From the NCBI GenBank assembly GCA_965226495.1, contig OZ245365.1:6144001-6208000 (forward strand): DNA of 64,000 bases. The letters run 5' to 3'. The position numbers were made by a program, and so were the translations under genes. The notes under the pieces were generated by a model. That model searched no databases. It was given only the letters and a program-made list of their open reading frames with translations, and was not told the origin of the DNA. Below are positions 2,198-43,936 of the stretch, piece by piece (position 1 is the stretch's first letter; each line of letters starts with the position of its first letter). The DNA is from Candidatus Marinacidobacterales bacterium. Lineage in GTDB: Bacteria; Acidobacteriota; Vicinamibacteria; Marinacidobacterales; DATDRI01.

Positions 2198-2281
2198 TTC
2201 CACGTGAAGAAACTCACCTGAATCGAGCCCGCTTCGGGACGATCGTTCCCCACCGCGCGGAGGATGATAGAGTGAATCCTC

Positions 2282-3253
2282 ATGGCGCAGTTTGGCGAGC
2301 TCGACGTACGGTTGGAACCGTGGGACGTGGAGTACGGCTCTGAATTTCCTCTGGATGCCCCGGAAGACGTTGGCGACGATGAGGTTTCACTGGATGTCGA
2401 GACGCCCGTCGGTTTATGGGATTCGATCGAGCCTGCGCCCGCGACGATACCGGGGCGTATCCTCTTCGTCGACGGTGTGCGACGGCTAGAGGCGCGGATC
2501 GTCCTGCGCCGCAATGCCAAGCTTTGTCGGGGTGCATTCGGGAGCTATGCGGTGGGCGCGGTCCTCGCAACGCACGGCGATGCGACGATATGTGAAGCGA
2601 GAGCGGATCGGGTGATCGTCGTGGGTTCCGGAGAATCTCTTCCCGAGCCGATCCACCTGATGCCGGCACTGACCTACCGGCCCCTGAGCGTCGTCTCCCA
2701 AGATGTGGACGCGCCGCTTCGAGGCGTCCTCCAGCAAATGCGACTGGCCGAGGAGCGTCTGGCCCGGGAGCTTGCCGACGAGGAGAACACGCTCGTGGTG
2801 GCGGACGGCCCGCTCACGTTCGGAGATCCGCTGCGGGGTGGCGCGGTGGGGTATATCAAGCGCCTTCAGAAACTCTACATTCCCGAGGATAAACTCGATC
2901 TTCTTTCCCGTTTGCCCCCCGGGTCACGGACACCACTTTTCGGTTTGCGATCGAGCAAACGCTTCGCTCGTTACGCTTGGTTTCTTCGATTGGTGGCGCC
3001 TCATCCCGGCGAATCGGAGCTATCGGGTTTGGTTCGCCTCGAAGTCTCCGAATCGGTAGGCGTGCAAGTCGCCAAGGAGCTCGCCGATGCGACCGCCCGA
3101 GCGCTCCCGCGATTCGCGCCGGGTCGTGGTCGCGACCCCCGCGCCCCTCAAAATCTGCTGCCAATCGGCGCTCTGGAATCTCGTCTTCGTCGACACCTCG
3201 GGGACGCCCGGCTCATCCGCCGCCACATTCAAACGCTGCTAGCCCTCAATTGA
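2282..3253 (+). CDS. nurA: NurA-family 5'-3' nuclease
   Basis: FVDGVRR and VVADGPL acidic motifs, GYIKR, and C-terminal DPRAPQNLLPIGALE typical of bacterial NurA; HerA encoded nearby. Confidence 0.85.
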   Translation: MAQFGELDVRLEPWDVEYGSEFPLDAPEDVGDDEVSLDVETPVGLWDSIEPAPATIPGRILFVDGVRRLEARIVLRRNAKLCRGAFGSYAVGAVLATHGDATICEARADRVIVVGSGESLPEPIHLMPALTYRPLSVVSQDVDAPLRGVLQQMRLAEERLARELADEENTLVVADGPLTFGDPLRGGAVGYIKRLQKLYIPEDKLDLLSRLPPGSRTPLFGLRSSKRFARYAWFLRLVAPHPGESELSGLVRLEVSESVGVQVAKELADATARALPRFAPGRGRDPRAPQNLLPIGALESRLRRHLGDARLIRRHIQTLLALN

Positions 3254-4071
3254 TGTCTCTCCGAGTGATTAGTTGGAACGTCAACTCGGTGCGGCTTCGA
3301 TTGCGGGCCCTGCGACGCTTGGTGAAGCGCTACGATCCGCATGTCTTTTGTCTTCAGGAGACAAAAGCAGAGAACGGGTCCTTCCCCTATGAGTTTTTCC
3401 ATCGGCTAGGTTTCGAGTACACGATTGTCCACGGACAGAAGATGCACTACGGGGTGGCCATTTTGTCGAAGCTTCCCTTATCCGATTCTCGGATTAAGAA
3501 TTGGTGCGGCCGGCCCGACTGCCGCCATGTCTATGCCACGCTTCCAGGAGGAATAGAGCTCCATAACTTCTATGTGCCGGCCGGCGGGGACGTTCCCGAT
3601 CCACGAGTGAATCCGAAGTTCGCGCACAAACTGAAGTTCATGGCCGCGATGACGCGGTGGTTCCGCCGGAAGCGCCATCCCGAGAACCGCTACGTTTTAG
3701 TGGGCGATCTGAACGTGGCCCCACACGAGAACGACGTTTGGGATCACAAGAAGCTGAGACGAGTCGTCACTCACACGCCGGTGGAGATAGAGGCCCTTGG
3801 CAAGATGCTCCGCTCGCACGATTGGATCGATGCGGTGCGCCGGTTCGTGCCCGAGGACAAGAAACTCTTCAGCTGGTGGAGCTACCGCGCCGAGAATTGG
3901 AAGGCGGCCGATAAGGGGCGCCGGTTGGATCACGTTTGGGTGACGCCGGCCCTCGGCGATTCACTCAAAGCTGCAGAGGTGCTCAAACGAGCACGCGGAT
4001 GGAGGCCAGCGTCCGACCACGCGCCGGTGATGGTGACGCTCGACCTCGCGTCTCAATCTGGACCGACGTAA
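3253..4071 (+). CDS. xth: Exodeoxyribonuclease III / AP endonuclease
   Basis: ATG overlaps the nurA stop (TGATG). Motifs SWNVNS, QETK, GDLNVA, RLDHVW, SDHAPV. The ORF-track start at 2977 is a spurious extension. Confidence 0.93.
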   Translation: MSLRVISWNVNSVRLRLRALRRLVKRYDPHVFCLQETKAENGSFPYEFFHRLGFEYTIVHGQKMHYGVAILSKLPLSDSRIKNWCGRPDCRHVYATLPGGIELHNFYVPAGGDVPDPRVNPKFAHKLKFMAAMTRWFRRKRHPENRYVLVGDLNVAPHENDVWDHKKLRRVVTHTPVEIEALGKMLRSHDWIDAVRRFVPEDKKLFSWWSYRAENWKAADKGRRLDHVWVTPALGDSLKAAEVLKRARGWRPASDHAPVMVTLDLASQSGPT

Positions 4072-4130
4072 GATACGTTCTTGTGGACGCCAAAACGCGA
4101 GGTAGCATAAATCAGGGTGGCCAGGCGCCA

Positions 4131-5843
4131 ATGGCGAAGCCAAAGACCGCTCCAGGCGAAGAGAAGAGGGCCTCGAGGCCGGCGGATAGCGAGCGCGCCG
4201 GGCTTGTGCTCGGCTCGGTGGACGCAACGCCCCTTGAGTTCTGGATTGGTGTCGAGGATGGCCGCCGTGTTCAACTCGACGACCTCGTCGTCGTGGAAAC
4301 GGTGACCCCAGACGGCCAACGCATTCGCTTCTACGGCATGGTCGATGTTGTGAAGAAGCGTTACGAAGGCACGCAGTTCGATTCCGATGCCTTCCGAGCC
4401 GTTGCGGGAACGCTTCCGGTGGAAGTTTCCTATACTGCCCACGTTCAAGTGACTCGCATCGACCCCGAAGTCTTCGTGCCGCCGCACCCCGGCGACGAGG
4501 CCCGGGTCGTCCGGGGAGAGGACTTCCAGCGAGCGCTCTACTTCGATCAGATGGAACGCCGTATCCCGATCGGCATGACGCGGACCAACGAGCCGGTCTT
4601 TGCTAATCTAGAATTCTTGGACGGAACGCGGGGCGCGCATGCCTCGATCAGTGGTGTTTCCGGCGTCGCCACCAAAACCTCCTACGCCACATTCCTCTTG
4701 TACTCTCTCTTTCAGTCGGAGGGACTGGGCGCGGACGCGATCAATTCGAAGGCCCTCATCTTCAACGTAAAGGGTGAGGATCTGCTCTGGCTCGACAAAC
4801 CGAACGTGAGGTTGACCGAGAAGGGGAAATCGGAGTACGAGCGCCTAGGTCTCGAAGCGGGGCCATTTCGCAGCGTCGGTTTCTTCGCCCCCGCCAAGCG
4901 CGCGAGCGTTGTACCGATGCCCGATACCGGAGGAAGACAACAAGGCGTGATGCCCTATCTTTGGACGCTCGGCGAGTTCGCCCGCGAGCGATTGCTCCGT
5001 TTCGTCTTCGCCGAGGGGGAGGACGCTCGGGCGCCGCTTTCCTTCGTCATTTATCGGGTCGAGTCGGCGCTACAGCGCGCGGCTGCCAAAGGCGAGCGCG
5101 ACGATCCGGGGCTCGAACTGGACGGTGTTTCTCTCCGGAGCTTCAGCGAGTTAGTCGATCTTCTCGACGACGAAGCGTTGGATCGCATGGTGCCCCGGAA
5201 CGTCGCCTCCGGCACGCTCGACGCTTTCCGTCGACGACTTCACGCCGCCGCCTCGCACATGGGGCACCTCGTGCGGGGCGATGCGTCTGCCACGGGGTGC
5301 GGGATCAGTTGGGAAGAACAGCAGGTGACGGTGGTGGATATCCATACCCTCCACTCGACGGCGCAGATGTTCGTGGTGGGAGTTTTGCTGAAGCGCATGA
5401 TGGAAAGAAAAGAAGCACAGGGAACTTCGCGCCCATTGGTATTCGTCGTTCTGGACGAAATGAATAAGTATGCGCCGCGTGAAGGGTGGAGCCCCATTCG
5501 CGATGTGCTACTCGACATCGCCGAAAGGGGACGTTCGCTGGGGGTATCTCTCTTCGGCGCGCAGCAGACGGCAAGCGAGGTGGAGCGGCGCGTCATCGCG
5601 AACGCGGCGCTCAAAGTCGTTGGACGTCTCGACCCAGCAGAGGCGGAAAGGGCTCAGTATGGGTTTCTGACCAGCGTGGCTCGCTTGCGTGCGAAGACGC
5701 TGCAGCCGGGAAGTATGATCGTCTCGCAGCCTGAGATCCCCACACCCATTCTTCTTCGGTTCCCTTTTCCCGCTTGGGCCACTCGGCAGAGTGAGGCGGG
5801 TACCGACGAACTAACCGATCCCTTTGCGAGGTTTGAGAATTGA
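4131..5843 (+). CDS. herA: HerA-family ATPase/DNA translocase (HAS barrel + FtsK/HerA P-loop)
   Basis: N-terminal HAS-barrel-like region, variant Walker A SGVSGVATKTS, Walker B VVLDEMNKYAP, RGRSLG arginine finger, GAQQ. Confidence 0.88.
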   Translation: MAKPKTAPGEEKRASRPADSERAGLVLGSVDATPLEFWIGVEDGRRVQLDDLVVVETVTPDGQRIRFYGMVDVVKKRYEGTQFDSDAFRAVAGTLPVEVSYTAHVQVTRIDPEVFVPPHPGDEARVVRGEDFQRALYFDQMERRIPIGMTRTNEPVFANLEFLDGTRGAHASISGVSGVATKTSYATFLLYSLFQSEGLGADAINSKALIFNVKGEDLLWLDKPNVRLTEKGKSEYERLGLEAGPFRSVGFFAPAKRASVVPMPDTGGRQQGVMPYLWTLGEFARERLLRFVFAEGEDARAPLSFVIYRVESALQRAAAKGERDDPGLELDGVSLRSFSELVDLLDDEALDRMVPRNVASGTLDAFRRRLHAAASHMGHLVRGDASATGCGISWEEQQVTVVDIHTLHSTAQMFVVGVLLKRMMERKEAQGTSRPLVFVVLDEMNKYAPREGWSPIRDVLLDIAERGRSLGVSLFGAQQTASEVERRVIANAALKVVGRLDPAEAERAQYGFLTSVARLRAKTLQPGSMIVSQPEIPTPILLRFPFPAWATRQSEAGTDELTDPFARFEN

Positions 5844-5852
5844 GTACAGGAA

Positions 5853-6719
5853 ATGATTCGACTTTCTTTTCGCCCACCGTATGATTGGGACTCGTTGGTC
5901 GAGTTCCTTTCGGTACGAGCGACCCCTGGCGTCGAGATGGTCGATGAGAGCACCTATCGTCGGACTATTTCACTCGGTGGATATTGGGGTACCTTCGAAG
6001 TCCGCCGGGTTACAAGACGCAACTATCTCGAGCTCGGAATCGACTTTCCCAACCCGCAGAGTTTTCCGTACATCGTTCAAAGGGCGCGTCGACTCTTCGA
6101 CGTCGATACCGACCCGGGGGAAGTTGCACGGCATCTTCGGCAAGACAGGCGGCTCATCGCACTGGTCGATGCGTATCCAGGGCTCCGTGTACCTGGATCG
6201 TGGGATGGTTTCGAGCTCGCGGTGCGAGCCATACTAGGGCAACAAATTTCCGTGAAGGGGGCCACGACGCTTGCCGGCCGACTCGCTCTTGGCTACGGAC
6301 GGAGGTTTCGGAAGGGGGAGTTGGGTGTGTTGTTTCCAACTCCAGAAGTGCTCGCGAAAGCGAATCCAGCCAGGCTCGGACTTCCCCTGGCGAGAGCTCG
6401 TGCCATCCCGCACCTAGCTCGCGCAGTATGTCAGAGGCAGCTTTCCTTTAACGGTGCAGCGGGGCTCCGGCCGTTCGTGGCGCAAATGAAAGACGTGCCG
6501 GGAATCGGTGAGTGGACGGCGCAGTACGTTGCGATGCGTGCGTTGAGTCATCCCGACGCTTTTCCCGCAACGGACCTGGGCCTTTTGCGCGGTGCTTCGA
6601 GTGGAAGCAGGGGACTGAAGCCGAAGACGCTCCTGCAGCGTGCCGAAAAGTGGAGGCCCTTCCGTGCCTACGCGGCCATGTATCTTTGGAAAAACTACGG
6701 AACTCAGAAGAGGAAATAG
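5853..6719 (+). CDS. alkA: DNA-3-methyladenine glycosylase II (AlkA_N + HhH-GPD), no Ada domain
   Basis: RPPYDW start, AVRAILGQQISV, HhH PGIGEWTAQY, PDAFPATDLGL, WRPFRAYA. Confidence 0.9.
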   Translation: MIRLSFRPPYDWDSLVEFLSVRATPGVEMVDESTYRRTISLGGYWGTFEVRRVTRRNYLELGIDFPNPQSFPYIVQRARRLFDVDTDPGEVARHLRQDRRLIALVDAYPGLRVPGSWDGFELAVRAILGQQISVKGATTLAGRLALGYGRRFRKGELGVLFPTPEVLAKANPARLGLPLARARAIPHLARAVCQRQLSFNGAAGLRPFVAQMKDVPGIGEWTAQYVAMRALSHPDAFPATDLGLLRGASSGSRGLKPKTLLQRAEKWRPFRAYAAMYLWKNYGTQKRK

Positions 6720-6722
6720 TCT

Positions 6723-7229
6723 GTGAAGACGCTCCTAGTGCTTCGCCATGCTAAATCGAGTTGGAAGGATCAAGGGCTAGATGACCACGATCGGCCACTC
6801 AACAAGCGGGGAACGAAAGACGCTCCGGTCGTCGGGAAGCTCATCAGCAAGAGGAAACTGACGCCGGATTGGATCCTGAGCTCCACCGCCTTTCGCGCGA
6901 GAAAGACCGTGGAGATGGTGGCCAAGGCCAGCAGGTTCTCGGGGGAGATTGAGTTCGAGGAGGGGCTGTATCTTGCGAGACCGACAACCGTTATCGCAGC
7001 GATTCAAACAGCAGCTCCGCAGTCGGCTGAGACCGTCCTGATCGTTGGGCACAATCCGGGATTCGGAGAGCTGGTCGAGATTCTGACCGGGCAAAAGCAA
7101 CCCTTTCCCACTGCAGCCTTGGCCGAGATAGAGCTTCCCGTCGAGCGCTGGGACGAGCTCACTCCTGAGACGGAAGGAAAGCTGATCGATCTCTGGAGGC
7201 CGAAGGAGCTTGCCGGGGAATCGGAGTAA
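6723..7229 (+). CDS. sixA: SixA-family phosphohistidine phosphatase
   Basis: RHAKSSW, DHDRPLNKRG and LIVGHNPG motifs. Confidence 0.85.
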   Translation: MKTLLVLRHAKSSWKDQGLDDHDRPLNKRGTKDAPVVGKLISKRKLTPDWILSSTAFRARKTVEMVAKASRFSGEIEFEEGLYLARPTTVIAAIQTAAPQSAETVLIVGHNPGFGELVEILTGQKQPFPTAALAEIELPVERWDELTPETEGKLIDLWRPKELAGESE

Positions 7230-7237
7230 CTGAGCCG

Positions 7238-7597
7238 CTATTCGAGCAAACGTAGTAGGTCCAGAGAACTCACGACACCTACCACCTTGTCTCCGTCGGT
7301 GACCACCATGTGGTGCACGCCGTACTGCCTCATCATTTGGGCGGCGGTGCTCACGTCGGCTTGGGGGGTCACGGTGTAGACGTGGGTGCTCATGACTCGG
7401 GAGATGGGGATCTTCGCTGAGAAGCCCGGGACAAGATCGGTCGAGGTGAGCATGCCTACGAGCTGGTTTTCCTCGTCCACCACTGGCAGGGAGTTGATAT
7501 CGTGAGCCTCCATGAGTTCGCGAACCCCTCCGACGAGGTCGCCCGGCTTGGCCATGATGACATTGGCAGCCATGACATCCGCCACTTTGTGTTTCAA
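7238..7597 (-). CDS. CBS-pair (Bateman) domain protein
   Basis: Two CBS repeats (VADVM...LPVVD...GMLTSTD; ISRVM...VVGVVSSLD). TTG start at 7597 with GAGGAG RBS. Confidence 0.85.
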   Translation of the reverse strand: MKHKVADVMAANVIMAKPGDLVGGVRELMEAHDINSLPVVDEENQLVGMLTSTDLVPGFSAKIPISRVMSTHVYTVTPQADVSTAAQMMRQYGVHHMVVTDGDKVVGVVSSLDLLRLLE

Positions 7598-7830
7598 GAG
7601 TTGCTCCTCATTGTTGGGCTGGTCTGATGATGGAGCGTAGCCTGAAGGAACTCCCAGAAGCAAATCGAGTCGATTGTCGTGTTCGAACCGCCAGTCTTGC
7701 TGAGGGGGGGGCTCGCCACGGCTTCCCTGAAAACCGTGACGCCGCATAAAGACGCACCCGAAGAGGCGGGTATATGATGCCCCCAGCCTGGGTTTCTGCC
7801 CTGCCTGTTGAAGCCCGGTGAAAAGAAAAT

Positions 7831-9000
7831 ATGCGCATTGTTCACACTAGCGACTGGCATGCCGGGCGGCTCTGGAGGCGCATCGATCGACTTCCCGAAG
7901 TGGCCGATGTTCTAGAAAACTTGGGAGACTTCCTAGAGCGGGAACGGATCGATCTGCTTTTGATGTCCGGGGATGTCTTCGACAGCGGCGCACCCAACCC
8001 GTCCGCCGAGCGGTTGGTCTTCGGCTTCTTCAAACGGATCGGCCGGGCCGGCATCAAGACCGTGGTCATCGCCGGGAACCACGATAGTCCGGCTCGGCTT
8101 CAAGCGTGGGGTACGCTTGCCGAGCTGGTAGATGTGCAGGCGGTCGCTTTTCCGCGGCGCTTGAATGACGGCGGTCTCGTAGAGGTCTCGGCCAGGTCGG
8201 GTGAGAGAGCGCTCGTGGCGGCTGTCCCGTTCGCGGCCCCGCGTCGTCTAATCAGTGCCCTCGACCTTTCCGGTGAAGAGACTCGGGTCAGACAGAAATA
8301 CGACCAGGGAATGAGGCAGATCATCGCGCATTTGGTGAGTGGGTTCGAGCGAGAGACCATCAATCTGGTCATGGCTCACACGCACCTTCAGGGCGCGGTA
8401 TTCTCCGGATCGGAGCGGCAAGTCCACCTCGGAGAAGAGTGGGCGACCACGCCGCAGGCTTTACCTTCGACCGCGCACTACATTGCGCTCGGCCATATCC
8501 ACCGACCGCAGAAGGTAGAGGCCGCACCGGCTCCTGCTTTCTACGCCGGTTCTCCCCTGCAGCTCGATTTCGGCGAGGTCGGTGAGGAGAAAACCTTTGT
8601 TTTGATCGATGCCCGCCCGCGACAGCCGGTTCAAGTCGAGCAAATTCCTTATAAAGGAGGGCTGCCGCTCCGGTCGGTTCGCAAAGGGCTTTTAGAGTTG
8701 GAGCGAGAGGCGGGGAGTTTGTCCGAAAGAGGTTGGTTGCGGGTGAGAGTCCCGCTGAAAGTGGCGGACCCAGACGTCAATGGTAAGGTGCGGCGGTTAC
8801 TTCCGAATGCGGTGTCGGTCGAGATTGAGCTTCCTGAGAAAGCGGAAGAGCAAGACGGTTCGCGTCTCCCGGGCGGCTCCCCGCCGCGGGAGCTCTATCA
8901 AGCCTACTGTCAGAAGGAGCACGGTTCGGAGGGAGAGCCGCAGGTGGTCGAGATCTTCGACAAACTGCTGGCCGACGCGGATCAGGGCGATGCCGGATAA
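7831..9000 (+). CDS. sbcD: SbcD/Mre11-family nuclease
   Basis: HTSDWHAG, SGDVFD, AGNHDS, MAH and ALGHIHRPQ phosphoesterase motifs. Confidence 0.93.
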   Translation: MRIVHTSDWHAGRLWRRIDRLPEVADVLENLGDFLERERIDLLLMSGDVFDSGAPNPSAERLVFGFFKRIGRAGIKTVVIAGNHDSPARLQAWGTLAELVDVQAVAFPRRLNDGGLVEVSARSGERALVAAVPFAAPRRLISALDLSGEETRVRQKYDQGMRQIIAHLVSGFERETINLVMAHTHLQGAVFSGSERQVHLGEEWATTPQALPSTAHYIALGHIHRPQKVEAAPAPAFYAGSPLQLDFGEVGEEKTFVLIDARPRQPVQVEQIPYKGGLPLRSVRKGLLELEREAGSLSERGWLRVRVPLKVADPDVNGKVRRLLPNAVSVEIELPEKAEEQDGSRLPGGSPPRELYQAYCQKEHGSEGEPQVVEIFDKLLADADQGDAG

Positions 9001-9054
9001 CCAAAGCAGTACAAGACCCGCGGTGCCCGTACTCCAACCAGAGGCCCGACGCCT

Positions 9055-12000
9055 GTGAGACCGCGGCGACTTACCGTCGAGGGTTTCACCTGCTTCAAGG
9101 AGCGCCAGGATCCGCTGGATTTCTCCGAGCTCGAGCTCTTTGCCATATCCGGCCCTACTGGTGCGGGTAAGTCGAGCCTACTAGACTCGATCATCTTTGC
9201 CCTCTATGGCCGGGTCCCTCGCATGAGGAAGGGATACTCGGAGCTCATCTCCCTCGGTCTCGATCGCATGTCGGTGATGTTGGACTTCCAAGTTGGACGG
9301 AGGGAGTTTCGAGTTACCCGAACCGGACGTCGAGGGCGTTCGGCCGAGGCTCAACTCGATGAGCTGGTGAACGGGACCGAGCGCTCGGTCGCGGGTGGCG
9401 TTCACAGTGTGGACAAGGAAATCGTTCGACTCCTCGGTCTTCGCTACGAAGCGTTCACGCAGGCGGTCGTTCTCCCCCAAGGCGATTTCGCCCGCTTCCT
9501 GAAGAGTCAACCGCGTGAACGGAGGGAGATCCTGCGCGATCTCCTACGTCTCCAAGTCTACGAGTCGATGAGGAGACGGGCCGCCGAGTGCGCCAAAGAT
9601 CTGGAGCTCAAGCTAAGCGGTGTCCGGGAGCGGCTGAGCGAAGACTTTGGCGAAGTGAAGCCGGAGCGAGCGGCGGAGCTCCGCCGACAAGTCCGAGCAC
9701 TCGAAAAGCAAACTCACAAAGCATCCGAAGAATTGGCTTCGCTTCAGAAGAAGCTCGAAGAGATCCGGGTCCGCTACGCAAAATCTAGAGAACTCGAGGA
9801 GAAGAGGGGCAGGCTCAAGGAGCTGAATAAGCGCGAGTCAAAAATTGAGGCCGATGAGGACAAGCTCGCTGCGGCCAGGGAGGTCGCGCCGCTTGTTCCG
9901 CTTATGGATGCGGCGGCGGCGAGTGAAGGGCGGGCGGAAGCAGAGCGCAAGCGGGCCTTTGAGGCGAGCAGCGAGCTCGGTGAGATTCGTCGCGTGCACG
10001 AGCAATCGAGCCAGAAACTTGCGGAGGCGATTCGACGCGCGGACGAGCTGCCCGCGCTGCAAGAGAGAATCCGAGCGCTCGACGAGCTCAAAGGTCTTCT
10101 CGCCCCAAGAAGGGCTGCCCAGCGCCGAAGAGATGATGCCCGCGGGCAGCAGGAGAAACTGCAGCAGGAGATCCAGCGGGTCGACAAAGACAAGCTGCGA
10201 CTCCGGCAGGGAGCAGAAAGTTTCGAGGGTGAGGTGGAAGTCGCTAGCAAGAACTGCGAGGCCTCGGGGTATGACGAGAGCTTAGATCGGCGATTAGATG
10301 CAGCTCGTGACAGCGCCGCATCGCTTGCTGCCGACCGCAGGACAGCGCGGCAAGTTTTGGCAGAAAAGGAAGAAGCCGAAGAGCGCGTAGCTCGAGCGCG
10401 AGAGAACGCGTCGACACAAAAGACCAGGTTGGATAAGTTGCGCCAATCGTTCCTCAGATGCGAGAGAGCCCGAAAAAAGCTCGAAACCGACCGTCGAAAG
10501 GCGGAAGCAAAACATGCGGCGGCGCATCTTCGCGATGAACTCGAGAAAGGAGGGAAATGTCCGGTCTGTGAGCAGCCGGTGTCGAAGCTTCCTCCGGCGA
10601 TCGAGGTGGCGTTTCTCGACGACACCGCGTCCCGTTTGGACAAAGCGGTTAACTCTGAAGAACAGGCGCGTTCCCTTCTAGAGGAGGGGGCCGAAGCGGA
10701 GGCGGAAGCCCGGGCCGCCGCGATGGCGTTCGAGAAGGAGCTTGCCAAGGCCGACAAAAAGTGTACCCGTCTGGAGCAGGCGATAGAGCTTGCCGAGCGT
10801 GCACTCGAGAAGAAAGTCGGTGATGGAACGACCGGTGATCGAGGGTCCCATGTGGAAGAACGAATCCTTTCCGCGGTTAGCCGGGTTGCGAAGGAGCGCG
10901 AGGCCCATCAAGAGGCGACGAGGGAGCTGGACAAGGCGGAGAAGGAGCTCCTGAGGGCACGGAGTGATCTCGAAGCGTTGACCGAGGAGTCTCGACGGCT
11001 CGAGCAGCAGGTGCGAGACGCTACATCGCGGGCCAAGGAAGCGGAAGAGGAACTCTTCGAGCTCGAGGAAAAGATTGGCAAGGTTGCGGGAGATGCGGAG
11101 CCGGCGCGGGAACGCGATCGTCTAGCGGAAGAGAGAATAGAAATCGAGCGCAACCGCAAGGCAGCCGAGGAAGCCGAGCGACGGACAGGGAACGAGTTTT
11201 CATCCGCTAAGAAGGCGCTCGAAGAGGCGGAGCGCACCGCGCAGGTATCCACTCGAGCCTTGCTGGAAGCTCAGAGGAAGGTCGAAGAAGCACTCCAGTC
11301 TGCGGGGATTAAGAAGGCAGAAACGATTCGGGGTGCGGCTCTTCCGGCGGTGGAGATGAGTCGTTTAGAAGAGGAGATCAGGTCTCATCGTCAAGAGCGC
11401 CATACGACCGAGCAACGAATGTCAGAACTCGAAACGGAGCTCGAGGGTCATGCCGTCACGGAGCATGCCCAGCGTCACGCGGAGGAGGAAGCGGTATTCA
11501 AGCGTCGCGACTACGAGGACGGCATCGAGAAGAAGGCCGAGCTAGAACAGCAGATCAAGGAGATCGAGCGCCGAATGGAGAGAGCGGCCGAGCTTTCCGC
11601 TCAGAAGAAGAGTTTGCAACAAGAGTTTTCCGTTTACCGGCGGCTTGCGACCGATCTTCGAAGCGAGAACTTCCAGGCGTATTTGCTCGAGGAAGCCTTT
11701 CGAGAGTTGGTCAACGGGGCGTCGATGCGGCTCGAGAGCTTGAGCGGACGCTACTCGTTAGAGTATCAGCAAGACGGCTTCCACGTGCTCGACCACGACA
11801 ACGCGCGCGAGCGAAGAAGTGCCGACACGCTTAGCGGTGGCGAAACATTTCTTGCTTCGCTGGCCTTGGCACTCGAGCTCAGCGAGCAAATACAACGCGC
11901 CGCCGGCGCGGTGAATCTGGATAGTCTCTTCATCGACGAAGGTTTCGGGACTCTCGATCCCGAGACCTTGGACACCGTGGCCAGCGCCATCGAGTCTCTA

Positions 12001-12123
12001 CACGTCGGAGGTCGCATGGTCGGCATCATCACTCACATCCCCGAGCTGACTGATCGACTACCGGCCGCTATCCGCATCGAGAAGCACCCTGAAGGCTCCC
12101 GTATCCGACAGGAACTCCTATAG
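9055..12123 (+). CDS. sbcC: SbcC/Rad50-family SMC ATPase
   Basis: Walker A GPTGAGKS, Q-loop LPQGDF, long coiled coils with central zinc hook CPVC, signature LSGGE, Walker B FIDEGFG, ITH. Confidence 0.94.
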   Translation: MRPRRLTVEGFTCFKERQDPLDFSELELFAISGPTGAGKSSLLDSIIFALYGRVPRMRKGYSELISLGLDRMSVMLDFQVGRREFRVTRTGRRGRSAEAQLDELVNGTERSVAGGVHSVDKEIVRLLGLRYEAFTQAVVLPQGDFARFLKSQPRERREILRDLLRLQVYESMRRRAAECAKDLELKLSGVRERLSEDFGEVKPERAAELRRQVRALEKQTHKASEELASLQKKLEEIRVRYAKSRELEEKRGRLKELNKRESKIEADEDKLAAAREVAPLVPLMDAAAASEGRAEAERKRAFEASSELGEIRRVHEQSSQKLAEAIRRADELPALQERIRALDELKGLLAPRRAAQRRRDDARGQQEKLQQEIQRVDKDKLRLRQGAESFEGEVEVASKNCEASGYDESLDRRLDAARDSAASLAADRRTARQVLAEKEEAEERVARARENASTQKTRLDKLRQSFLRCERARKKLETDRRKAEAKHAAAHLRDELEKGGKCPVCEQPVSKLPPAIEVAFLDDTASRLDKAVNSEEQARSLLEEGAEAEAEARAAAMAFEKELAKADKKCTRLEQAIELAERALEKKVGDGTTGDRGSHVEERILSAVSRVAKEREAHQEATRELDKAEKELLRARSDLEALTEESRRLEQQVRDATSRAKEAEEELFELEEKIGKVAGDAEPARERDRLAEERIEIERNRKAAEEAERRTGNEFSSAKKALEEAERTAQVSTRALLEAQRKVEEALQSAGIKKAETIRGAALPAVEMSRLEEEIRSHRQERHTTEQRMSELETELEGHAVTEHAQRHAEEEAVFKRRDYEDGIEKKAELEQQIKEIERRMERAAELSAQKKSLQQEFSVYRRLATDLRSENFQAYLLEEAFRELVNGASMRLESLSGRYSLEYQQDGFHVLDHDNARERRSADTLSGGETFLASLALALELSEQIQRAAGAVNLDSLFIDEGFGTLDPETLDTVASAIESLHVGGRMVGIITHIPELTDRLPAAIRIEKHPEGSRIRQELL

Positions 12124-12910
12124 TGAGTATCCGGAAACCCGCCGACCTCACGATCGCAGCGACGTTACGCTACCTCGAGGAATACTTACCCGCCGGCTCG
12201 CGGATCCTGGACGCCGGATGCGGGGGGGAGAGCTCGCGCTTAAGTTGAAGGACGCGGGGCATCGCGTGACGGGCTTGGACGTGGACGGGCGAGAAGTGGA
12301 AAAGGCCCTCGCCCTGGGCGTTGAGGCGAGACAAGCGGATTTCCTCCACTTGGAAGGAGAACCCTTCGACGCTATCGTTTTTAGTTTTTCGCTTCATCAC
12401 ATTTTTCCGTTGGCTGATGCGCTGGAGCACGCCGGGCGCCTCCTCGCTCCCGGTGGGCTCGTTCTCGCAGAAGAGTTCTCTTGGGACGAAATCGACGCGG
12501 GTACGGCGCGGTGGTTCTATGAAATGTGGTCTCTGCTCGAGACTTGCGGCGTGCTCTCGGAGGAATACTCGGCAGGAGGCGAGCACCACGGCGATCACGC
12601 CCATGGAGGTTACGCTCACGGCGCGACGCCGGCGGCGCCCCAGACTCCTCTCGAGGAACGGATCGCGGAGCACGACCATGAGCCGCCGCTCCACAAGGGC
12701 CATGAGATGCTGGAGGGAGTCGAGCGCCGCTTCGATATGGTGAGTTCGGAAAGCGTCCCGACTTTGTTTACGGACTTTGCCGCTGCCTTGGAGCCGACCG
12801 AGCGAGGGTACGCAGTTGCCTTTAAGCTCCAGGAGCTCGAGAGAAGCTTGATCGAGGATGAGGCCATCGTGCCTGTGGGGCTCCGCATGGTGGCGAAAAA
12901 GAAGGCCTGA
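12123..12910 (+). pseudogene. Class I SAM-dependent methyltransferase, frameshifted in a G7 run (probably a sequencing error)
   Basis: GTG overlaps the sbcC stop and reads MSIRKP...ILDAGCG. One extra G in the 12222-12228 run joins it to GGELALKL...GLDVD...FSLHH. His-rich insert present. Confidence 0.75.
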
Positions 12911-40650: not shown

Positions 40651-42147
40651 GTGGCGCACGCTCACCAAAAGGGGGTCCACTTCGTGTCATCAACCAAAGA
40701 AACCAACAAGGCCGACCACGCGGACAACCCGACGAACGGGCGAGCGCGGGAGGCAAACGCAAAGGTAATCGCGTCGATTTTCAACCCGCCATCGAGCCCT
40801 AACGTCTCCCCTCCGGCAGAGACTCGCCGAGAGGAGAGCCATCACGAACCCAAGGCGGTTCTGGTTGACTCTGAAGTCGCGACCTACCGTGAGAAGTTCG
40901 ACGAGATTAAGGAGATGCTGGTCCAGAATCGATCTCTCGCTCTTCTGTACATCGATGCATCGAGACTATCCCAGATCGAGCACGATTACGGGAGCCAGAT
41001 CTACGAGGAGGTTCTGCAGCTGGTCACCAAGCTCATTCTCGACATGCGCGGCATGCAGACTCGTCAGGACGACCTGGTCACGGTCAATGAAAAGCACGGC
41101 GATGTCTTTCTGATCTTTCTATCCAAGAAACGCGAAGAGAAGCCGTTCGGCAAGGGCGATCTGGAACATCTTGCGGACCGCATTCATTCCTACCTGAGTA
41201 AGCGCATCTACCGAATGACGTGCTCTTATCTACGCAGTCGACCCAAACTGGGGATTGGATACGGCCTCGTTCTGCACAACCCGCTCATCAAAGAAGAACG
41301 GCTCATCCTCAAAGTGATCGACGACGCGCGGAAGATGGCCAAGTTCCAAGCTTACCGGGTGGAAGTGAAGAACAAGGAGATTCTTCAAGAGATCATCCTC
41401 AAGGAAGACGTGCAGACCGTCTTCCAGCCGATCGTGAACATGCAAGACCGGTCGATCGTGGGTTACGAGGCGTTGACCAGAGGTCCGAAAGGGACCGAGT
41501 TCGAGAGTCCTTACACGCTTTTCGATATCGCGACCGAATCGGACCTGCTGTTCGAGCTCGACCGATTGTGCCGTCGCAAGGCCTTGATCAACGCGTCGAA
41601 CCTCGAGTCACCCTACAAGCTTTTCGTCAACACGCTGCCCATGACCATTCGCGATCCCGAGTTCCAGGGGCAGCTAATGGTCGAGTTCCTGAAGGGACTG
41701 GACCTCGCTCCGTCACGTATCGTTTTGGAGATCACCGAGCGGTTGGCGATCGACAACTACAGTCTCTTCTTGGAAGCGATGAACTACTTCACAGATGTTG
41801 GTTTCGCAGTGGCGGTGGACGACATGGGTGCCGGCTATTCGGGCCTTGAGAAGATCGTCCACCTGAAGCCCAACTACTTGAAGTTCGATCTTCTGATGGT
41901 TCGCGACATCGACACCAGCTTCGTCAAACGAGAGATGCTGAAGGCGATTCTCTCGCTCGCCGAGAAGGTCAAGGCCAGCGTCATCGCTGAGGGCGTCGAG
42001 ACCCAGGAAGAGCTCAATACTCTCCTGGACCTGGGTATTACCTACGGTCAGGGGTTCTTCTTTGCTCGGCCCGAGCCCGGTTTCGCTCACCAACAGCCGG
42101 GAGGGTTGGCGGTCGAAACGAATCGGATCGTTACTCCCACCGAATAG
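40651..42147 (+). CDS. Degenerate-GGDEF + EAL c-di-GMP phosphodiesterase (paralog 2)
   Basis: EALTRG, FVN, EITE, DDMGAGYS, KFD, AEGVE, QG. The GGDEF site reads HGDVF. True start may be GTG 40684 or later. Confidence 0.88.
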   Translation: MAHAHQKGVHFVSSTKETNKADHADNPTNGRAREANAKVIASIFNPPSSPNVSPPAETRREESHHEPKAVLVDSEVATYREKFDEIKEMLVQNRSLALLYIDASRLSQIEHDYGSQIYEEVLQLVTKLILDMRGMQTRQDDLVTVNEKHGDVFLIFLSKKREEKPFGKGDLEHLADRIHSYLSKRIYRMTCSYLRSRPKLGIGYGLVLHNPLIKEERLILKVIDDARKMAKFQAYRVEVKNKEILQEIILKEDVQTVFQPIVNMQDRSIVGYEALTRGPKGTEFESPYTLFDIATESDLLFELDRLCRRKALINASNLESPYKLFVNTLPMTIRDPEFQGQLMVEFLKGLDLAPSRIVLEITERLAIDNYSLFLEAMNYFTDVGFAVAVDDMGAGYSGLEKIVHLKPNYLKFDLLMVRDIDTSFVKREMLKAILSLAEKVKASVIAEGVETQEELNTLLDLGITYGQGFFFARPEPGFAHQQPGGLAVETNRIVTPTE

Positions 42148-42202
42148 CTCCTTCCCTTCATCTCACCTTGCCAACTTCCCGGTAGGGAACTACTCTTCCG
42201 GT

Positions 42203-43936
42203 GTGGTAACCAATCGAGACATCGGTAAAATTCTCCGTGAGATCTCGGCCTACCTCGAGATGGAAGGAGTAGGGTTCAAGCCTCGAGCCTACGAGAAGGC
42301 TGCCGATGCAGTCGAGGCCACGGAAGAGCCGGTTTCGAAGCTCTTCGTAGAAGGCGGGGTCAAGGGGGTCGCAACCGTTCCCGGAGTCGGCAAATCGATC
42401 GCCGAGAAGATTGCCGAGTTCATCGAGACCGGTAAGGTCGGCTACCTCGAAGAGATGAGGTCGCGGCGTCCCGTCGATTTGATGGAGCTCGCCGTCATCG
42501 AAGGAGTCGGCCCTAAGACGGTCGGGATGCTCTATGACGCCCTCGGTGTCCGCACCCTCGACGATCTGGAGCGGGTCGCCCGCGAAGGAAGGGTCCGGCC
42601 GCTTCGTGGTTTCGGCGAGAAAAGCGAGCAGGAGATTCTGCGGGGGCTTGCCTTTCTCAAACAACATCGGGGCCGATTTCCACTCGGTGAAGTACTCCCG
42701 CTCGCCTACTCCATCGAGCAGCGTTTGCGAGAACTAGAAGGAGTCGACAACGTGACGGTGGCAGGGAGTGTCCTTCGCCGGAAGGAGACGGTAGGGGATG
42801 CCGATGTCCTAGTGGTTTCGCGCGATTCCGAAAGAGTAATGGATTTTTTCGTAGAGATGTCGGAGGTTGCCCACGTTTACGGAAAGGGACCGACCAAGAG
42901 CAGCGTACGCCTAGAGAACGGTCTGGACGTGGATTTGCGTGTGGTCCCCGCCAAGAGTTTCGGCGCTGCTCTCAACTACTTCACGGGGAGCAAAGCGCAC
43001 AACGTCCAACTCAGACGGATCGCGCAGAAGCGGGGGTTGAAGCTCAACGAGTACGGCCTCTTCAAAGGCACCAAGGCCGTGGCCGGCAAGACCGAGGAAG
43101 ATCTTTACCGAGCGCTCGATCTTCCTTTCATCCCTCCCGAACTGCGTGAAGACCGAGGCGAGATCGAAGCCGCGTGCGAAGGGCGCTTGCCTAAACTCAT
43201 CGGCTACGGAGAACTGAAAGGCGATCTGCAAACGCAGACTGATTGGACCGACGGGAAACACTCGATCGAGGACATGGTCAGCGCGGCGCTGGCTAACGGC
43301 TTGGAGTACATCGCGATCACCGACCACACAATCAGCCTGGCGATGATGGGAATGGATGAGACCAAGCTGGCCAAGCAGATGGAGGCCATCGAAGCGATCG
43401 ACCGACGCTCACCCGGTATCCGTGTGCTGAAGGGGGCGGAGGTCAACATCATGCCGGACGGCTCTCTGGACATCGGCGACTCGTTGCTCTCTCGCTTGGA
43501 CATTGTGGGGGTGGGAGTGCACTCTCACTTCCATCAAAGCAGGGGCGAGATGACCGAACGACTCTGTCGGGCGATGCAAAACCCGCACGTGGACATCCTC
43601 TTTCACCCCACCGGCCGTGTGGTGCTGAAGCGAGATCCCTACGAGCTCGACCTCGACGAGGTACTCCGGGTAGCCAAAAAAACGGGAACGGTTCTAGAGA
43701 TCGACGCCATCCCAGATCGGTTGGATCTGAAAGACGTGCACGTCCGAAAGGCGATCGATGCCGGTGTGAAACTGGTCATCGACAGCGATGCGCACGCCAC
43801 TGCGCACTTCGGGCTTTTGCACTTCGGTGTCGCCCAGGCACGGCGTGGCTGGGCAACCGCAAAGGATATTCTGAACACACTTCCGGTTGAGGGGCTTTTG
43901 GCCTCGTTGAAGGGCGTTCGTAAGGAGCGGCGCTAA
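42203..43936 (+). CDS. polX: DNA polymerase X family with C-terminal PHP domain
   Basis: HhH PGVGKSIA and EGVGPKT, AGSVLRRKETVGDADVL, VDLR, YFTGS; PHP motifs TDH, HPTGR, DSDAH. Confidence 0.93.
   Translation: MVTNRDIGKILREISAYLEMEGVGFKPRAYEKAADAVEATEEPVSKLFVEGGVKGVATVPGVGKSIAEKIAEFIETGKVGYLEEMRSRRPVDLMELAVIEGVGPKTVGMLYDALGVRTLDDLERVAREGRVRPLRGFGEKSEQEILRGLAFLKQHRGRFPLGEVLPLAYSIEQRLRELEGVDNVTVAGSVLRRKETVGDADVLVVSRDSERVMDFFVEMSEVAHVYGKGPTKSSVRLENGLDVDLRVVPAKSFGAALNYFTGSKAHNVQLRRIAQKRGLKLNEYGLFKGTKAVAGKTEEDLYRALDLPFIPPELREDRGEIEAACEGRLPKLIGYGELKGDLQTQTDWTDGKHSIEDMVSAALANGLEYIAITDHTISLAMMGMDETKLAKQMEAIEAIDRRSPGIRVLKGAEVNIMPDGSLDIGDSLLSRLDIVGVGVHSHFHQSRGEMTERLCRAMQNPHVDILFHPTGRVVLKRDPYELDLDEVLRVAKKTGTVLEIDAIPDRLDLKDVHVRKAIDAGVKLVIDSDAHATAHFGLLHFGVAQARRGWATAKDILNTLPVEGLLASLKGVRKERR

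Follow-up and report, generated by a model that had tools for sequence, protein, structure and literature searches.

Genes of the locus

We analysed a window of 64,000 nucleotides (nt) from a Candidatus Marinacidobacterales bacterium (contig OZ245365.1; genome G000), and in particular a locus near its start in which genes for the processing of DNA ends are interleaved with genes for base excision repair (BER). The nurA, herA, sbcD and sbcC genes all lie on the plus strand in one cluster at 2282-12123. They are neither contiguous nor as tightly spaced as a single transcription unit. The xth gene, for an exonuclease III/apurinic-apyrimidinic (AP) endonuclease, splits nurA from herA, and alkA, a sixA-like gene and an inverted gene for a CBS-pair protein split herA from sbcD. 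The xth ATG (3253) shares its A with the nurA stop codon TGA in a TGATG overlap, and the following gaps are 59 nt (xth-herA), 9 nt (herA-alkA) and 3 nt (alkA-sixA-like). The spacing of nurA-xth-herA-alkA-sixA is compatible with a single transcript. The inverted CBS gene divides the locus into two transcription units; in the second, 54 nt separate sbcD from sbcC. The original prediction, which saw in this locus a module linking alkylation and abasic-site repair to break resection, had identified all of these genes correctly, as judged by structure or profile matches and motifs, and the open reading frame (ORF) coordinates confirm the one-strand run that it described, with its overlap and gaps, and the inverted CBS gene after it.

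The nurA gene (2282..3253, plus strand; 323 amino acids) encodes a Deinococcus-type NurA nuclease that matches PDB 7f6d_H over residues 7-320 (E 1e-31) and, as second hit, Thermotoga TM1739 (1zup) at 6.7e-11. The catalytic 'DG' motifs I and II, as described in the review PMC13748450, correspond to D64-G65 and D175-G176, and their aspartates are invariant in an alignment of 66 rows. It is on these structure-sequence matches and the DG motifs that the assignment of NurA as a probable nuclease rests. The herA product (4131..5843, plus strand; 570 amino acids) is a hexameric translocase/ATPase that matches PDB 7f6d_B at 1.1e-150, with residues 20-556 aligned to chain residues 12-601, comprising the N-terminal barrel and the RecA-like ATPase. 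Its Walker A motif, GVSGVATKTS, is deviant and is identical in Deinococcus radiodurans HerA (DrHerA); its Walker B motif, VFVVLDE, is normal. Against Pfam and NCBIfam neither NurA nor HerA matched a family at E<=10, and DrHerA-type proteins appear to lie outside the coverage of the HerA models in these databases.

The gene lodged between them, xth (3253..4071, plus strand; 272 amino acids), is a second exonuclease III/AP endonuclease copy in this genome. Its product scores 179.4 bits against TIGR00633 (cut-off 99.05) and matches NExo/ExoIII in PDB at 2.5e-31, and the motifs WNVNS, LQE, GDLNVAP, RLDH and SDHAP are present and aligned to NExo. Between the housekeeping xth of the window genome and the locus copy, identity is only 34%. 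The closest Xth relatives outside the genus are 49-61% identical and mostly labelled Alphaproteobacteria. In a FastTree phylogeny the Xth of the window genome, of the metagenome contig L301 and of G005, a genome from another genus of the same family, group together (support 99) within a clade that is otherwise alphaproteobacterial, and the G005 copy sits in an unrelated gene context. This grouping and the G005 context together suggest that the copy was already in the family and moved to the nurA/herA junction in this genus, and by its place in the tree the locus xth was probably acquired by an old transfer into the family. Neither xth nor alkA is unusual in GC content or in third-position GC content (GC3), and a search for insertion scars on the flanks of xth and of the alkA-sixA-CBS block gave short two-copy matches but no direct or inverted repeats. 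The predicted complex of a NurA dimer with Xth scored 0.00 against a mark of 0.32, a result that counts neither for nor against binding.

Downstream of herA, alkA (5853..6719, plus strand; 288 amino acids) encodes a 3-methyladenine DNA glycosylase II with AlkA_N (123.2 bits) and HhH-GPD (28.6 bits) matches, both above the cut-offs. It matches the structure of Escherichia coli AlkA (1diz) at 3.2e-44 and conserves the catalytic Asp column, the second D of the E. coli 'PDDY', which we take to be D238. Against the NCBIfam equivalog NF007641 it scores 192.5, below the cut-off of 229. It is the only AlkA_N gene in the window genome, and its nearest relatives outside the genus are Terriglobia-labelled, at 50-54% identity. 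The sixA-like gene (6723..7229, plus strand) encodes a histidine phosphatase of 168 amino acids with a His_Phos_1 match of 37.3 bits (cut-off 21.7), a match to PDB 2rfl, 'putative SixA', at 2.4e-18, and RHA and GHNP motifs. Its score against the SixA equivalog TIGR00249 is 59.1 bits, under the cut-off of 74.5, and on this evidence we assign it to branch 1 of the histidine phosphatases. The CBS-pair gene (7238..7747, minus strand; 169 amino acids), convergent with the sixA-like gene, has a Pfam CBS match of 95 bits in two stretches. By the ORF coordinates a divergent intergenic region of 83 nt (7748..7830, assigned to neither strand) then separates it from sbcD, and this region must contain the sbcD promoter. 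The sides of the read joints on contigs over the locus are 21-25 letters, with a single one of 73 in the CBS-sbcD spacer (one run).

The second unit begins with sbcD (7831..9000, plus strand), whose product of 389 amino acids is an Mre11-type nuclease scoring 180 bits against TIGR00619 (cut-off 77.65). It is the single sbcD of the window genome. The sbcC gene (9055..12123, plus strand) encodes a Rad50-type SMC ATPase of 1022 amino acids with AAA_23 and SbcC_Walker_B matches above the cut-offs; over its full length it scores 319 bits against TIGR00618, below the cut-off of 478.5.

The four-gene operon and its neighbours elsewhere

Our survey of HerA loci comprised the best 80 of 556 loci in species-representative genomes, 11 loci added from relatives of the window's order or class and 7 from an even phylum sample of 401 genomes, in total 98 loci outside the genus; the 18 added loci duplicate neither one another nor any of the 80. 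Their content was scored by tblastn with the window proteins. The gene order was herA-sbcD-sbcC-nurA in 39 loci and nurA-herA-sbcD-sbcC in 30, the rest being mostly truncated contigs, and all four genes were present in 54 of the 59 loci, from several phyla, that had at least 1.5 kb upstream and at least 7 kb downstream of herA. For this HerA/NurA clade the counts contradict the synteny statement in the review PMC13748450. Section 3.1 of PMC5448004 notes a four-gene nurA/herA/sbcD/sbcC operon in Oceanithermus profundus. In G034, a genome of the same order as the window's, the four operon genes are joined by overlaps of 8 nt or gaps of 3-11 nt. The same genome has a second copy (L389:7861-11577), in which sbcD and a short sbcC of the herA-first clade are immediately preceded by a herA-like remnant of 46 residues; it looks like a decayed second operon.

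The window HerA is 67-76% identical to its nurA-first relatives. A quick tree of SbcD splits by gene order and not by taxon labels, and the SbcD proteins of the window genome, of its sister genomes G001 and G002 and of the same-family genome G005 nest in the nurA-first clade, with values of 97 and 98 in the Shimodaira-Hasegawa-like approximate likelihood ratio test (SH-aLRT). Since this sbcD is also the only one in the window genome, we conclude that the window locus is a derived copy of the four-gene operon.

The linkage to base-repair genes was sought from both sides. Relatives of Xth, AlkA, the SixA-like protein, the CBS protein and the methyltransferase encoded after sbcC were found within about 10 kb of herA in none of the 98 HerA loci (tblastn; 91 loci at E<=0.01 with no filter on coverage, 7 at E<=1e-3). 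Starting from xth, the 80 genome loci of the closest Xth relatives include none with nurA, herA, sbcD, sbcC, alkA, sixA or CBS, and among 80 metagenome loci nurA and herA occur only in two genus-level contigs (0/78 of the others), so that no xth relative outside the genus lies beside nurA/herA in 158 loci (80 genome and 78 metagenome). Starting from alkA, sixA, CBS and sbcD accompany it only in the two same-genus genomes among 80 loci of AlkA relatives, and no alkA relative outside the genus is linked to nurA/herA (0/78). The linkage of xth and alkA to nurA-herA on which the original prediction built is thus absent from the surveyed neighbourhoods of all relatives outside one genus. The literature search found no paper that joins NurA, HerA and exonuclease III in a gene cluster and, among the matches listed (title or abstract), none that links NurA/HerA and AlkA in an operon.

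The operon does have other genes lodged in it elsewhere. Those at the herA/sbcD or sbcC/nurA junctions (21 ORFs scanned) are unrelated to the window's: a sigma-70 factor, a luciferase-like oxidoreductase, AlgH, DsbA-type thioredoxins, mannosyl-3-phosphoglycerate synthase, a periplasmic binding protein, PhoX and an Eco57I-type methylase. Among 104 operon-flanking ORFs in 27 loci there is no glycosylase or AP endonuclease. The flanks of these 27 loci include defence-like or mobile genes, namely SMODS with a type ISP enzyme, AbiEi-REase, Schlafen/AlbA_2, a DNA methylase with DUF1156, and IS110; the loci with such flanks are L005, L010, L012, L020 and L028.

The locus within the genus and family

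The interleaved order was seen only in this genus, in the window and in two independent metagenome contigs, L301 and L302, which at 90% and 94% nucleotide identity have the same permease-nurA-xth-herA order. Two sister genomes, G001 and G002, belong to the same genus (the records are labelled 'Candidatus Marinacidobacterales'), and both carry a reduced form of the locus. From nurA codon 45 to the oxidoreductase gene downstream of the locus, G002 is collinear with the window except for three changes. A DDE transposase gene (L111:13201-14163) adjoins nurA, which is truncated at codon 45, and the sequence further upstream is unrelated to the window; 737 nt inside xth (window 3287-4023) are gone, with both ends of xth left; and herA has a frameshift through a 2-nt deletion in a non-homopolymer context. 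In G001 the permease gene and the nurA promoter region and start codon are kept, and are followed by a 79-nt piece that corresponds to window 4082-4160 (blastn) and lies just upstream of alkA. This piece consists of the 3' part of the 59-nt xth-herA spacer (4072..4130, plus strand) and the first 10 herA codons, and it now ends in a TGA that overlaps the alkA ATG. The deletions of nurA and xth and of herA in G001 are clean, and alkA-sixA-CBS-sbcD-sbcC follow. The remnants in G001 and G002 therefore indicate that the ancestor of the genus carried the interleaved locus in full. Of its parts, nurA-xth-herA is dispensable and has decayed twice within the genus, and alkA-sixA-CBS-sbcDC are retained in both genomes. 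Single-nucleotide indels in sbcC (G001, G002) and in nurA (L301) were not counted as decay because they may be sequencing errors, some being at homopolymers. The syntenic site of G005 has sbcD and sbcC, abutting an intact methyltransferase gene, and the oxidoreductase, and is without nurA, herA, alkA, sixA and CBS.

The class-I methyltransferase-like ORF of the window (12218..12910, plus strand) has a degenerate N-terminus. Its Pfam match begins at profile position 8, the frame upstream has no start codon and no GxGxG, and the S-adenosylmethionine-binding motif I region is degenerate. It begins 94 nt after sbcC and, contrary to the original prediction, is not coupled to it. In G001 about 5.8 kb separate sbcC from the methyltransferase gene, and the methyltransferase is 68-72% identical in the sister species, against 84-94% for neighbouring genes. 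In G005 an intact class-I methyltransferase gene (L387:14629-15414) lies directly after the sbcC stop. The pairing of sbcC with a methyltransferase may thus be an older one, of the family level, that is decaying in the window.

On its 5' side nurA has an ADOP/MacB-type permease gene as neighbour, and 3' of the locus the methyltransferase-like ORF is followed by a molybdopterin oxidoreductase gene. The rest of the window is ordinary chromosome, with RND pumps, CarD, glnA, enolase and a two-component system. A PolX-family DNA polymerase gene (HHH_8 and DNA_pol_B_thumb; window 42062-43936) is a repair polymerase gene about 30 kb away and unlinked to the operon.

Scans of the locus for consensus promoters and terminators gave results at the chance level of shuffled sequence, with no consensus promoter in the 83-nt CBS-sbcD region. 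The direct repeat GTTC-N7-GTTC, which we take to be the Acidobacterium/alphaproteobacterial LexA box, is absent from the locus; the window has two copies of it, at 39.7 and 48.4 kb, where 3.07 would be expected. Two lexA genes are present in the genus. Before lexA1 a conserved TTCK-N7-TTCK direct repeat lies within the spacer of a TTGCTT-17-TAAATA promoter, and CACCTA-N5-CACCTA lies just upstream of the lexA2 start; we regard both as candidate SOS operators, from the lexA promoters alone. Neither is found before nurA, herA or sbcD, and their counts in the window are at chance level. Because the operators themselves are inferred, this absence is weak evidence.

Interpretation and comparison with known systems

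The best-supported account is that a four-gene operon which is horizontally mobile and already known has received a lineage-specific elaboration. We interpret the locus, with a probability of about 0.75, as a lineage-specific rearranged copy of the nurA-herA-sbcD-sbcC operon with passengers, and not as a dedicated new system. HerA-NurA would act as a motor and nuclease that resect DNA ends, and SbcCD (Mre11-Rad50) would recognise and clip ends. In the ancestor of the genus a second xth of alphaproteobacterial type would have inserted exactly at the nurA/herA junction, taking over the translational coupling to nurA, and a block of alkA, sixA and the inverted CBS gene would have inserted between herA and sbcD. 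The outcome would be the two transcription units nurA-xth-herA-alkA-sixA and sbcD-sbcC. The added genes are passengers, such as other lineages also have at these junctions. From their families and intact motifs, the enzymes most likely keep their customary roles, Xth incising AP sites and cleaning 3' ends and AlkA removing alkylated bases, and both would simply, it is inferred, be co-expressed with the resection genes.

Several points weigh against this interpretation. Two of the four inserted genes encode consecutive enzymes of one pathway, a glycosylase and an AP endonuclease, and they lie inside a repair operon; that random passengers should form such a pair is unlikely, repair genes being a few per cent of a genome, in an estimate that is rough, post hoc and drawn from one lineage. 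In addition, translation of xth is coupled to that of nurA, and across five genus-level sequences the gene goes the way of nurA/herA: it is kept where these are intact (G000, L301, L302) and lost in G001 and G002, where alkA-sixA-sbcDC survive. This pattern would fit a functional tie, and the co-loss in G001 could be explained by physical adjacency alone. The survey has its own bounds, in that Nfo, Nth, Fpg, Ung and Tag in other loci were covered only by Pfam scans of 125 ORFs, the genome loci of HerA were the best 80 of 556, and the SbcD tree was a quick version.

The chief alternative is that the locus is a selected, co-regulated module coupling BER to break resection, with Xth as an accessory of NurA-HerA. 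AlkA and Xth would process alkylated and abasic sites, Xth would clean 3'-blocked ends, and NurA-HerA and SbcCD would resect the breaks that arise at clustered lesions. Part of this, as put forward in the original prediction, has stood, in that the order is real and the spacing fits one transcript, tight as it is from the TGATG overlap through the 59, 9 and 3 nt gaps. Two sequential BER enzymes occupy two different junctions of one repair operon, the catalytic motifs of Xth, AlkA and NurA are all intact, and the nurA-xth-herA order is kept in L301 and L302 and in the contigs of three other studies. It is also in keeping with a module that xth is lost in both genomes in which nurA/herA are lost or broken while alkA stays, and that the G001 deletions spare promoter-proximal remnants, so that alkA remains behind the old operon start. 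However, the linkage is confined to one genus (0/98 HerA, 0/158 xth and 0/78 alkA loci outside it), and the inverted gene cuts sbcDC off from the rest. Moreover, alkA persists without nurA/herA in G001 and is therefore not dependent on them, no role in repair is known for the sixA-like and CBS passengers, none of nurA, herA and sbcD has a candidate SOS operator in front of it, and other lineages have unrelated passengers at the same junctions. We consider such a module unlikely, and functional coupling of base excision to resection in general equally so. It is unlikely, too, that Xth has been recruited as a working accessory that cleans 3'-blocked or abasic ends for the loading of NurA-HerA, with AlkA on the same transcript, in a 'base damage to break repair' supra-operon in which two pathways are being wired together.

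Another possibility is that nurA-herA-sbcDC is chiefly a module for the degradation of phage or other foreign DNA, its neighbours being the cargo of a defence island. A 2026 review (PMC13748450) states that bacterial NurA-HerA mainly degrades viral DNA. The patchy occurrence of this HerA, in 10 of the 401 genomes of the even phylum sample including the window's, and the defence-like or mobile neighbours at several of the 27 scanned loci agree with that statement. The genes around the locus in the window itself, however, encode an ABC permease, a molybdopterin oxidoreductase, RND pumps, GlnA and enolase and are not defence genes, and PADLOC gave only weak generic P-loop, SMC and methyltransferase matches, the best being HerA to mad8 (1.5e-12) and SbcC to LmuB (2.6e-21). 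The sbcD of the locus, as the only one of the genome, presumably serves housekeeping repair too, and the synteny statement in the same review is the one that the four-gene counts contradict. We regard a mainly defensive role as very unlikely. An assembly artefact or chimera as the source of the interleaved order has a practically negligible probability: 1-nt indels, some at homopolymers, do occur in the sister assemblies, and the window genome itself is a metagenome-type assembly, but contigs from three other studies, over 2200-5894, 2200-6055 and 2200-6515, show 0 differences, the two independent metagenome contigs have the same permease-nurA-xth-herA order, and in G002 both xth ends are left as remnants between nurA and herA.

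As found, and on our interpretation of a rearranged operon with passengers, the locus matters little, being one more common bacterial end-processing operon with lineage-specific additions. The value of the survey lies in the strong four-gene synteny of the Deinococcus-type HerA/NurA clade across several phyla. The three sister genomes, one intact, one xth-deleted and hit by an insertion sequence (IS) and one fully deleted, form a natural series for probing the tie between Xth and NurA-HerA, and if that tie is true this would be a rare case in which base excision and end resection are coupled at the operon level.

Among known systems, E. coli BER, in which AlkA acts before Xth/ExoIII, is like the window in its enzymes: the window Xth has a match to 1AKO at 2e-26 in which the catalytic motifs align. 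It differs in arrangement: in E. coli alkA, which is controlled by Ada, is unlinked to xth, whereas the window has both genes inside a break-repair operon, with xth as a second copy of horizontal origin. D. radiodurans NurA-HerA (PDB 7F6D, 7WRW/7WRX; PMC9960219) is matched by the window HerA (1e-150) and NurA (1e-31) along nearly the whole of each protein; the deviant Walker A is shared, the N-terminal region of the window HerA aligns to the HAS-barrel part of DrHerA, and the window NurA keeps its DG motifs. PMC9960219, however, treats the Deinococcus nurA and herA as an operon of two genes, whereas in the window xth stands between them and sbcDC lie 2 kb downstream. The herA-mre11-rad50-nurA operon of thermophilic archaea, as outlined in PMC2288612, also clusters the four functions, presumably for joint 5'-3' resection in homologous recombination, but the window has bacterial-type proteins without a Pfam NurA or HerA match, another gene order and embedded BER genes. 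The bacterial four-gene operon resembles the window locus, with the same four genes on one strand and an SbcD of the nurA-first clade, and what sets the window apart from it is four extra genes, one of them inverted, at two junctions, and a nurA that is coupled to xth and not to herA.

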